Of a stretch of DNA of 64,000 bases, positions 17,856-23,425 are shown piece by piece. Origin of the DNA: Escherichia coli (lineage in GTDB: Bacteria > Pseudomonadota > Gammaproteobacteria > Enterobacterales > Enterobacteriaceae); the NCBI RefSeq assembly GCF_003334305.1, contig NZ_QOWS01000025.1, one strand, 5' to 3'. The position numbers were made by a program, and so were the translations under genes. The number at the start of each line of letters is the position of its first letter. The stretch's first letter is position 1. The notes beneath the pieces were generated by a model. It saw only the letters and a program-made list of their open reading frames with translations. It was not told where the DNA came from and did no database searches.

Positions 17856-18296
17856 GATACCCTTCAAACGAAATCTACCTTCACCCCGTAAAAGATGGGT
17901 TTGGCAGCACACTTGCCTTATATCTACTCATTTTTACTGCAACAGGTTGAAATCTCAGCACTGTCAGAAAGCGCTGATGACTAAACAGCCCTGGGCCGGG
18001 CGATGTAACCATCACACAGAATCCTGATAGCGAAATATGGCGTGACTCGATACTTCACTCCGCAATGCATTCCTTGATGAATTCGCAGGACCGTGATACA
18101 CGGGACAGGTCACTGAATGACGACAATGTCCTGGAAATCAGCGAACCGCGCATCTGAAGTACATTTGAGCGACTGTACCAGAACATGAATGAGGCGTTTG
18201 GATTAGGCGATTATTAGCAGGGCTAAGCATTTTACTATTATTATTTTCCGGTTGAGGGATATAGAGCTATCGACAACAACCGGAAAAAGTTTACGT

Positions 18297-19544
18297 CTAT
18301 ATTGCTGAAGGTACAGGCGTTTCCATAACTATTTGCTCGCGTTTTTTACTCAAGAAGAAAATGCCAAATAGCAACATCAGGCAGACAATACCCGAAATTG
18401 CGAAGAAAACTGTCTGGTAGCCTGCGTGGTCAAAGAGTATCCCAGTCGGCGTTGAAAGCAGCACAATCCCAAGCGAACTGGCAATTTGAAAACCAATCAG
18501 AAAGATCGTCGACGACAGGCGCTTATCAAAGTTTGCCACGCTGTATTTGAAGACGGATATGACACAAAGTGGAACCTCAATGGCATGTAACAACTTCACT
18601 AATGAAATAATCCAGGGGTTAACGAACAGCGCGCAGGAAAGGATACGCAACGCCATAATCACAACTCCGATAAGTAATGCATTTTTTGGCCCTACCCGAT
18701 TCACAAAGAAAGGAATAATCGCCATGCACAGCGCTTCGAGTACCACCTGGAATGAGTTGAGATAACCATACAGGCGCGTTCCTACATCGTGTGATTCGAA
18801 TAAACCTGAATAAAAGACAGGAAAAAGTTGTTGATCAAAAATGTTATAGAAAGACCACGTCCCCACAATAAATATGACGAAAACCCAGAAGTTTCGATCC
18901 TTGAAAACTGCGATAAAATCCTCTTTTTTTACCCCTCCCGCATCTGCCGCTACGCACTGGTGATCCTTATCTTTAAAACGCATGTTGATCATCATAAATA
19001 CAGCGCCAAATAGCGAGACCAACCAGAAGTTGATATGGGGACTGATACTAAAAAATATGCCGGCAAAGAACGCGCCAATAGCATAGCCAAAAGATCCCCA
19101 GGCGCGCGCTGTTCCATATTCGAAATGAAAATTTCGCGCCATTTTTTCGGTGAAGCTATCAAGCAAACCGCATCCCGCCAGATACCCCAAGCCAAAAAAT
19201 AGCGCCCCCAGAATTAGACCTACAGAAAAATTGCTTTGCAGTAACGGTTCATAAACGTAAATCATAAACGGTCCGGTCAAGACCAGGATGAAACTCATAC
19301 ACCAGATGAGCGGTTTCTTCAGACCGAGTTTATCCTGAACGATGCCGTAGAACATCATAAATAGAATGCTGGTAAACTGGTTGACCGAATAAAGTGTACC
19401 TAATTCCGTCCCTGTCAACCCTAGATGTCCTTTCAGCCAAATAGCGTATAACGACCACCACAGCGACCAGGAAATAAAAAAGAGAAATGAGTAACTGGAT
19501 GCAAAACGATAGTACGCATTTCTGAATGGAATATTCAGTGCCAT
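18297..19544 (-). CDS. cscB: sucrose:H+ symporter CscB (MFS, oligosaccharide:H+ symporter family)
   Basis: 415-aa 12-TM ORF recognised as the CscB sucrose permease (MALNIPFRNAYYRFASSYSFLFF). Confidence 0.95.
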   Translation of the reverse strand: MALNIPFRNAYYRFASSYSFLFFISWSLWWSLYAIWLKGHLGLTGTELGTLYSVNQFTSILFMMFYGIVQDKLGLKKPLIWCMSFILVLTGPFMIYVYEPLLQSNFSVGLILGALFFGLGYLAGCGLLDSFTEKMARNFHFEYGTARAWGSFGYAIGAFFAGIFFSISPHINFWLVSLFGAVFMMINMRFKDKDHQCVAADAGGVKKEDFIAVFKDRNFWVFVIFIVGTWSFYNIFDQQLFPVFYSGLFESHDVGTRLYGYLNSFQVVLEALCMAIIPFFVNRVGPKNALLIGVVIMALRILSCALFVNPWIISLVKLLHAIEVPLCVISVFKYSVANFDKRLSSTIFLIGFQIASSLGIVLLSTPTGILFDHAGYQTVFFAISGIVCLMLLFGIFFLSKKREQIVMETPVPSAI

Positions 19545-19615
19545 AATTACCTGCCTGTCGTTAAAAAATTCACGTCCTATTTAGAGATAAGAGCGACTTC
19601 GCCGTTTACTTCTCA

Positions 19616-20530
19616 CTATTCCAGTTCTTGTCGACATGGCAGCGCTGTCATTGCCCCTTTCGCCGTTACTGCAAGCGCTCCGCAACGTTGAGCGAGATCG
19701 ATAATTCGTCGCATTTCTCTCTCATCTGTAGATAATCCCGTAGAGGACAGACCTGTGAGTAACCCGGCAACGAACGCATCTCCCGCCCCCGTGCTATCGA
19801 CACAATTCACAGACATTCCAGCAAAATGGTGAACTTGTCCTCGATAACAGACCACCACACCTTCTGCACCTTTAGTCACCAACAGCATGGCGATCTCATA
19901 CTCTTTTGCCAGGGCGCATATATCCCGATCGTTCTGTGTTTTTCCACTGATAAGTCGCCATTCTTCTTCCGAGAGCTTGACGACATCCGCCAGTTGTAGC
20001 GCCTGCCGCAAACACAAGCGGAGCAAATGCTCGTCTTGCCATAGATCTTCACGAATATTAGGATCGAAGCTGACAAAACCTCCGGCATGCCGGATCGCCG
20101 TCATCGCAGTAAATGCGCTGGTACGCGAAGGCTCGGCAGACAACGCAATTGAACAGAGATGTAACCATTCGCCATGTCGCCAGCAGGGCAAGTCTGTCGT
20201 CTCTAAAAAAAGATCGGCACTGGGGCGGACCATAAACGTAAATGAACGTTCCCCTTGATCGTTCAGATCGACAAGCACCGTGGATGTCCGGTGCCATTCA
20301 TCTTGCTTCAGATACGTGATATCGACTCCCTCAGTTAGCAGCGTTCTTTGCATTAACGCACCAAAAGGATCATCCCCCACCCGACCTATAAACCCACTTG
20401 TTCCGCCTAATCTGGCGATTCCCACCGCAACGTTAGCTGGCGCGCCGCCAGGACAAGGCAGTAGCCGCCCGTCTGATTCTGGCAAGAGATCTACGACCGC
20501 ATCCCCTAAAACCCATACTTTGGCTGACAT
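19616..20530 (-). CDS. cscK: fructokinase CscK (PfkB/ribokinase family)
   Basis: 304-aa ORF with PfkB-family motifs (VLGDAVVD near N-terminus, DSTGAGDAF near C-terminus); upstream of cscB on the same strand. Confidence 0.93.
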   Translation of the reverse strand: MSAKVWVLGDAVVDLLPESDGRLLPCPGGAPANVAVGIARLGGTSGFIGRVGDDPFGALMQRTLLTEGVDITYLKQDEWHRTSTVLVDLNDQGERSFTFMVRPSADLFLETTDLPCWRHGEWLHLCSIALSAEPSRTSAFTAMTAIRHAGGFVSFDPNIREDLWQDEHLLRLCLRQALQLADVVKLSEEEWRLISGKTQNDRDICALAKEYEIAMLLVTKGAEGVVVCYRGQVHHFAGMSVNCVDSTGAGDAFVAGLLTGLSSTGLSTDEREMRRIIDLAQRCGALAVTAKGAMTALPCRQELE

Positions 20531-22180: not shown

Positions 22181-22187
22181 CATAATA

Positions 22188-23183
22188 TCAGGTGGAACAA
22201 CGGATCAACAGCGGGCAAGGGATCCGCGTCACTCTTCCCCCTTCACGACCTTCAATAATATGCAATGCAGCTTCCCGCCCGATAATGTCATGTGGAAGCT
22301 GAATTGTGGTCAGCGGCGGTAAAAACAGATGCCCGACGCCAACCAGATTATCAAAGCCCATTACGGCGACATCCTGCGGGATACGTACCCCCTTCGCCAG
22401 GAGAACCTGATAAGCGACAAAGGCTGCGCGATCGTTACCACATATCAGAACATCAAAATCTGGTTTGCCCGGTTTGAAGTGGGCATTGAGTAAACTTGCG
22501 AGATCGGTGTAGTGATCATCACCTGTTGCCATGTGAAATTGTTTCACCTCAGCCAGATCTCGTCCAGCATCACGCCAGGCCTGCTCAAATCCCTGCCGAC
22601 GATACCCTGTTGCCAACGCACTTTCCGGTAGCCAGAAGCATAACGGTTGACGATAGCCCGCCGCGAGCAAATGCTGTGTTGATTCATATTGTGCAGTGTA
22701 ATCATCAGGGATATAACTGGGTAACGCTGGGTCATCCGCCACACAGTTCGCCAATACAATATTTTCACCATACAGAGACTCAGGCAGCGTGATATGTCGC
22801 AGCCCCATTGTAGTATAGATAATGCCATCCGGACGGTGGGCAAGCAGCTGACGTGCCGCGCGGGCAGCGTCATCTTCAGAAAAAATATTGATTAAAAAAC
22901 TATTCCAGCCGAACTCGCTGGCGGTTTGCTCAATGGCAAGCAGAATATCAACAGAGAAAGGAGTGGTAGCCGTGTCCTGCGCCAGCACGGCGAGAGTCGA
23001 CGGCTTACGTCCTTGAGCGCGCATCTTACGGGCGGAAAGATCAGGAACATAATTCAGGGTCTGGATTGCCTGCAATACGCGGTCACGCGTTGCAGGACGC
23101 ACAGATTCTGCATTATGCATCACCCGGGAGACTGTCATCATCGACACTCCCGCCAGGCGTGCGACATCCTTTAATGAAGCCAT
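22188..23183 (-). CDS. cscR: LacI-family sucrose operon repressor CscR
   Basis: Start moved to internal Met (MASLKDVARLAGVSMMTVSRV, an HTH LacI-type N-terminus), giving 331 aa; the 397-aa track ORF carries a non-coding 5' extension. Confidence 0.9.
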   Translation of the reverse strand: MASLKDVARLAGVSMMTVSRVMHNAESVRPATRDRVLQAIQTLNYVPDLSARKMRAQGRKPSTLAVLAQDTATTPFSVDILLAIEQTASEFGWNSFLINIFSEDDAARAARQLLAHRPDGIIYTTMGLRHITLPESLYGENIVLANCVADDPALPSYIPDDYTAQYESTQHLLAAGYRQPLCFWLPESALATGYRRQGFEQAWRDAGRDLAEVKQFHMATGDDHYTDLASLLNAHFKPGKPDFDVLICGNDRAAFVAYQVLLAKGVRIPQDVAVMGFDNLVGVGHLFLPPLTTIQLPHDIIGREAALHIIEGREGGRVTRIPCPLLIRCST

Positions 23184-23425
23184 ACCCAAGCCGTTTGCCG
23201 TAAAACGGGCACTGTAGCAGAAACAGACGTCACTGGCGAGATCCAACGATATTCTCAACGCCCTATCACCCAACACGGCAATACAATAAAAAATAACAAT
23301 AATTGCCGGATAATTGTACTCAATTCCGCCTCTGTTCTCGCCAACGAGTAACCATATAGGCAAGTAAGTAAAACATGCCAACTGGCATCGCCAACCTGGA
23401 GAAGAAAATATAAATATGGATCATT

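Follow-up and report, generated by a model that had tools for sequence, protein, structure and literature searches.

A chromosomal csc sucrose locus between argW and a dsdX remnant in Escherichia coli GCF_003334305.1

The closest described relatives of the locus analyzed here are the csc sucrose-utilization genes of Escherichia coli EC3132 and E. coli W (Bockmann 1992; Jahreis 2002; Sabri 2013; as reported in PMC11251922 and PMC3938415) and the csc locus that takes the place of dsdCX in the enterohemorrhagic E. coli (EHEC) O157:H7 strains EDL933 and Sakai (Moritz and Welch 2006; Connolly 2015, PMC4366372; O'Boyle 2020, PMC7486766). The locus is typical of phylogroups B1, D and E (PMC11251922). 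We analyzed a window of 64,000 nt from E. coli GCF_003334305.1 (contig NZ_QOWS01000025.1; all positions refer to the whole window), in which a 5,571-bp segment, 17856-23426, lies directly 3′ of the tRNA gene argW. We conclude with very high confidence that this segment is the chromosomal csc regulon, a sucrose pathway independent of the phosphotransferase system (PTS), at the argW-dsdA recombination hotspot, where it replaces dsdC and codons 1-373 of dsdX. As far as the accounts of EC3132 and W cited above describe them, those loci match the window in their four genes and the order and orientation of these, in the two 12-bp operators and CRP site between cscK and cscA, and in their chromosomal site, from argW to a truncated dsdX. 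They differ from the locus studied here in alleles only, for example in CscB, where the window encodes R189/S246 against the commonest allele; in E. coli W, argW is also occupied by a lambdoid prophage (PMC3032704), and none is present in our window. The O157:H7 strains share with the window an identical right junction, an identical 72-codon remnant of dsdX and an intact dsdA downstream. In them, however, an element with a recombinase gene is inserted between argW and a 441-bp spacer that precedes the csc genes, whereas no such element is found here, and each Csc protein differs by 2-7 amino acids. The locus is therefore one that has already been described in detail, in its ordinary arrangement, and the original prediction, made from the sequence of the window, was right to call it a known type of accessory islet (PMC4366372; PMC7486766; PMC3032704; PMC11251922).

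The boundaries of the segment were defined by BLASTN against E. coli C and K-12 MG1655. Homology to both genomes is lost after position 17855 and regained at 23427, giving break points at 17855/17856 and 23426/23427; the argW-dsdA comparison with K-12, which had been proposed as a check, breaks at exactly these places. The earlier bounds of 17856-23425 were thus correct at the start and at most one base short at the end. The left boundary is the last base of argW, a tRNA-Arg(CCU) gene at 17781-17855 on the plus strand that was called by ARAGORN and matched the Rfam tRNA model with 63.4 bits. Both flanks are shared with E. coli C and K-12, as yfdF-mlaA-yfdC-argW on the left and the dsdX 3′ end-dsdA-emrYK on the right. 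Between them, E. coli C has argW-dsdC-dsdX-dsdA without a prophage while K-12 has the CPS-53 prophage followed by dsdC-dsdX-dsdA, the latter as had been stated and as we confirmed against MG1655; both therefore have dsdC and a full-length dsdX where the window has the csc segment. The stretch of E. coli C that is displaced amounts to 2,368 bp and runs from the argW-dsdC spacer through dsdC and the dsdC-dsdX intergenic region to codon 373 of dsdX; in K-12, CPS-53 is displaced as well. The segment is the sole large insertion relative to K-12 in the 64-kb window, in agreement with its earlier description as the main accessory element there. Its base composition is unremarkable (48.0% GC, against 48.4% for the window, with cscB at 43%), and the GC profile of the window gave no clear foreign signal for the islet.

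Following argW, the order is a 441-bp spacer, cscB, cscK, cscA, cscR, the last 72 codons of dsdX, and dsdA, and none of these six open reading frames (ORFs) contains an internal stop. The csc genes do lie beside argW, but cscB does not follow it directly, as had been thought, because the spacer intervenes. cscB (18297-19544, minus strand) encodes an intact sucrose:H+ symporter of the LacY-type major facilitator superfamily (MFS), with 415 amino acids and glutamine at position 353. cscK (19616-20530, minus strand) encodes an intact fructokinase of 304 amino acids, identical to WP_001274887.1, which is annotated as cscK. cscA (20747-22180, plus strand), divergent from cscK, encodes an intact GH32 sucrose hydrolase (invertase) of 477 amino acids from the annotated ATG; the program-made ORF begins three codons further upstream, at 20738. 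cscR (22188-23183, minus strand) converges on cscA with a 7-bp gap and encodes the LacI-family repressor of the csc genes, intact, with 331 amino acids from its annotated ATG. A 397-amino-acid ORF with a TTG start, initially listed for cscR, was rejected as an ORF-calling artifact. The region from there to the right islet boundary (23184-23426) comprises the sequence upstream of cscR.

Several kinds of evidence support these assignments. In searches with NCBIfam models, CscB scored 594 bits against the oligosaccharide MFS transporter model TIGR00882 (cut-off 220), CscK 507.7 bits against the fructokinase equivalog NF006957 (cut-off 450), and CscA 479.7 bits against the GH32 model TIGR01322 (cut-off 356). 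CscR matched LacI-family models over its full length without reaching an equivalog cut-off, and the library holds no CscR equivalog model. Across its full length, the locus shares 98-100% identity with RefSeq loci annotated cscB/cscK/cscA/cscR. In RefSeq strain COL60J, which is 99.5% identical across 6 kb, the Prokaryotic Genome Annotation Pipeline (PGAP) names cscB, cscK, cscA and cscR, the last as "sucrose operon repressor CscR", and the products of the window match those named proteins at 413/415 (CscB), 304/304 (CscK), 476/477 (CscA) and 330/331 (CscR) residues. Identity to strain A7, from orangutan feces, is 100% across 6 kb of the csc region. The locus of E. coli W was compared by proxy, by mapping published csc primers (PMC3938415) onto the window. 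Thirteen mapped to the expected gene ends, 12 of them exactly and one with one mismatch, and the primers cscB_F2 and cscB_R2 were exact matches at the two ends of cscB. The gene identities and orientations originally proposed (CscB, CscK, divergent CscA and convergent CscR) are thus borne out by the NCBIfam results and by near-identity to annotated csc genes.

A misnamed sucrose or oligosaccharide system of another kind, either the scr regulon (scrKYABR) or the raffinose (raf) operon, was considered as well, given that the model matched by CscA is labeled "sucrose-6-phosphate hydrolase" and that older PGAP annotations use this name. The scr regulon likewise serves sucrose use and likewise encodes a GH32 hydrolase, a fructokinase and a LacI-type repressor. 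However, it works through a porin and a PTS enzyme II (EII) and hydrolyzes sucrose-6-phosphate, and none of its transport genes is present in the segment: no ORF there encodes a ScrY porin, an EII(Scr) or an alpha-galactosidase, and the transporter that is present is a LacY-type MFS symporter. In addition, identity at the DNA level to loci bearing the name csc is 98-100%, while matches to other E. coli GH32 genes cover 14% of the query at no more than ~73% identity. We therefore rejected an scr or raf identity on gene content and regard it as extremely improbable.

Identification as the csc regulon rests on four intact genes, those with family cut-offs scoring above them, on near-identity to annotated csc loci and on the primer matches, together with the operators, junctions, prevalence and literature discussed below. 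A few points weigh against it. The identity of CscR depends on its near-identity to annotated CscR and on its context rather than on an equivalog model, and the CscB allele (R189 and S246, as in WP_001197025.1 of strain A7) departs from the commonest one, with C189 and A246 in COL60J and O157:H7. With respect to function, growth on sucrose was not seen in five csc+ scr- isolates, of which four lack a visible lesion (PMC11251922), and wild-type E. coli W needs >1% sucrose for induction (PMC3938415). We found no sequence evidence that contradicts the csc assignment.

The divergent cscKB/cscA control region (20531-20746) is consistent with this identity. The palindromic 12-mer GTTAACGTTAAC occurs there in two exact copies, at 20637-20648 and 20701-20712, and these are its only occurrences in the 64 kb, where 0.1 would be expected. 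Between them, at 20652-20667, is a CRP-like site, TGTGATATTCATCGCA, with one mismatch to the CRP consensus. In the csc locus studied by Jahreis (2002), as related in PMC11251922, two 12-bp inverted repeats are the CscR operators flanking the cscA promoter and are accompanied by a Crp-cAMP site; an account of csc regulation is also given in PMC3938415. At the level of sequence, the GTTAACGTTAAC pair and the CRP-like site agree with these published operators and Crp site. A promoter/terminator consensus scan gave no usable signal, returning 2 promoter-like sites against 8.8 expected. Rfam searches at the gathering threshold found three tRNAs only, and no RNA elements in the islet.

The mechanism of the csc pathway is established for the family, and near-identity suggests that it applies to this strain. 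CscB would import sucrose together with a proton, CscA would split it in the cytoplasm into glucose and fructose, and CscK would phosphorylate the released fructose. Both cscA and cscKB are under repression by CscR and activation by cAMP-CRP (PMC3938415; PMC11251922). In this strain, CscR may be expected to bind both putative GTTAACGTTAAC operators and to repress cscKB and cscA until sucrose is high, and activation of the csc genes would require cAMP-CRP.

On the right side of the islet, homology to the dsdX of E. coli C and K-12 begins at 23427 and continues to 23644. This plus-strand sequence, contained in a 72-codon ORF at 23426-23644, is a non-functional 3′ remnant of the D-serine transporter gene, comprising codons 374-445 of 445. 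Its 72-amino-acid product corresponds to positions 374-445 of 445 in the NCBIfam DsdX equivalog NF007395 and is identical to residues 374-445 of E. coli C DsdX at 71/72 positions, with residues 375-445 all identical. Base 23426 lies on the csc side of the junction, so that the first codon reads GTG and not ATG (Met) as in E. coli C. In COL60J, PGAP describes the fragment as a GntT/GntP/DsdX permease pseudogene without an N-terminus. The remnant is followed by dsdA (23662-24990, plus strand), an intact 442-amino-acid D-serine ammonia-lyase that scored 813.6 bits against TIGR02035 (cut-off 368). An ORF of about 72 codons, probably the dsdX 3′ end, ahead of an intact dsdA was what had been anticipated from the sequence. 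No dsdC was found in this region of the window, either in the ORF list or by comparison with E. coli C.

This arrangement has known consequences for D-serine metabolism. In EHEC with this gene arrangement, dsdA is not expressed and D-serine has a toxic effect, and deletions that place cscAp or another promoter near dsdA switch it back on (PMC7486766). E. coli W has lost D-serine utilization for the same reason (PMC3032704). Most strains with truncated dsdCX have csc at that site, and carriage of the locus of enterocyte effacement (LEE) almost excludes an intact dsdCXA, and vice versa (PMC4366372). With neither the activator DsdC nor the transporter DsdX left, the present strain is expected not to transcribe its intact dsdA. 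It should neither use nor tolerate D-serine, unless a further copy of dsdCXA is located elsewhere in its genome. The altered D-serine handling that had been foreseen is thus in line with the literature and with the absence of dsdC.

To place the islet within the species, we searched 5,426 complete E. coli genomes and scored it as present where a match covered at least 80% of 17700-23700. It was found in 2,646 genomes (~49%), so the replacement of dsdCX by csc was correctly recognized at the outset, but its attribution to "some lineages" understated its extent. The cscR-dsdX junction seen here is present in identical form in 2,670 of the 5,426 genomes. In 1,471 of them argW is joined directly to the islet, as in the window, and the other csc-positive genomes have something integrated at argW. 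The fact that about half of complete E. coli genomes share an identical right junction points to one ancient event rather than recurrent insertion, and the islet would now be inherited vertically or moved through homologous recombination of its flanks.

The 441-bp spacer between argW and cscB (17856-18296), which is non-coding here and has no match in E. coli C or K-12, belongs to the islet and travels with csc. It was found in single copy in 2,645/5,426 genomes, essentially the same set as csc, and where an element is inserted at argW, as in O157:H7, the spacer is found on the right-hand side of the 23-bp argW repeat. At 18041-18217 on the plus strand it holds a piece of a decayed DUF4942-family gene, its reading frame broken by a TGA at 18155-18157. 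PGAP calls this fragment a DUF4942 pseudogene or a short coding sequence in COL60J and O157:H7, and the O157 version gave a match of modest support to Pfam PF13708 (E=3e-6, model positions 14-62 of 190). It is probably a scar of an older mobile element. A more speculative idea, which we consider unlikely, is that the spacer and the DUF4942 fragment are the last trace of an argW-integrating element that delivered csc once and destroyed dsdCX at the same time, and that the phage records that carry csc represent argW prophages still able to acquire the locus and move it. If true, such an origin would mean a further way of delivering a known locus and not a new system.

We also considered whether the islet could be a presently mobile genomic island, or a prophage remnant, able to excise from argW and transfer on its own. 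It does abut a tRNA gene known as an integration hotspot, its spacer carries a fragment of a probable mobile-element gene, and four phage records bear csc adjoining an excisionase gene. However, the ORF list contains no integrase or phage ORF within the segment, as had been noted previously, nor a recombinase, and no second copy of the 23-nt argW 3′ end was found in the 64 kb with up to 3 mismatches allowed. The junction inside dsdX does not vary among the 2,670 genomes that have it, and where an element does occupy argW, its attachment (att) repeat lies left of the spacer, leaving csc outside that element. With no integrase, no second att repeat and a fixed right junction, the islet is not an active mobile element, and independent excision and transfer appear very unlikely.

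The phage records themselves merit a brief description. In ON470594.1 (Escherichia phage vB_EcoP-683R2, a Lederbergvirus), the csc segment is found at 5001-10569 next to an excisionase gene, and in ON470608.1, ON470622.1 and ON470589.1 the csc match breaks off at query base 4325, where cscA ends. In all four deposited "phage genomes", csc is located at one end of the record. These cases could reflect imprecise excision of an argW prophage or prophage boundaries that were extended too far.

The intact csc locus had been taken to predict a sucrose-positive strain, which is too strong a statement in view of the published phenotypes (PMC11251922; PMC3938415). Isolates with csc only grow slowly or very slowly on sucrose (PMC11251922). 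With cscR, both operators and the wild-type Q353 of CscB intact, the best prediction is sucrose-positive growth that has a high threshold and may be weak; a clear phenotype is not guaranteed by intact csc genes. Alternatively, the locus may be genetically intact but cryptic or very weak, so that routine tests would score the strain as sucrose-negative or delayed and the main effect of the islet would be the loss of D-serine catabolism. The slow growth of csc-only isolates and the non-growing isolates mentioned above favor this possibility, as do the failure of wild-type E. coli W to grow at 0.2% sucrose (PMC3938415), the presence in CscB of wild-type Q353 rather than Q353H, which permits growth on low sucrose, and the full repression expected from an intact cscR and both operators. 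On the other hand, the four csc genes and their control region are all intact, and E. coli W and O157:H7, whose loci are near-identical, do grow on sucrose. We consider a cryptic locus a real possibility, though not the probable outcome, and retain high-threshold, possibly weak sucrose use as our expectation. These predictions hold for the content of the 64-kb window, and an scr locus or a second dsdCXA elsewhere in the genome would change them.

Several features of the window outside the islet were also noted. At 61149-61224 (minus strand) there is a single tRNA-Ala(GGC) gene in place of the tandem alaX-alaW of K-12, and the two K-12 alignments overlap on it, which would fit the removal or addition of one 115-bp repeat unit when the tandem genes recombined. 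The K-12 element IS186C between nupC and pdeA is absent at ~58723-58734, where a 12-bp alignment overlap corresponds to the K-12 target duplication. The yfcO-yfcV chaperone-usher fimbrial operon (1-8000) is strongly diverged from K-12: 714-1503, the yfcO adhesin, has no megablast match, and 2001-4000 is 77% identical, compared with 98-100% for most of the window. In addition, yfcU is a pseudogene in K-12 but is annotated as intact in A7, the strain identical to the window across the csc region. Finally, yfdF (14483-15541, plus strand) is AT-rich, with 32-40% GC compared to ~48-52% for its neighbors; because it is also present in K-12, it is not part of the csc event.

The csc locus makes no open question newly testable, and its relevance is to strain typing only, since it assigns the strain to the csc-positive group, roughly half of E. 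coli. The D-serine trait has been linked to niche restriction in intestinal versus urinary E. coli (PMC4366372; PMC7486766). For a strain such as this one, the locus predicts possible, often slow and high-threshold use of sucrose, together with an inability to catabolize D-serine and sensitivity to it.

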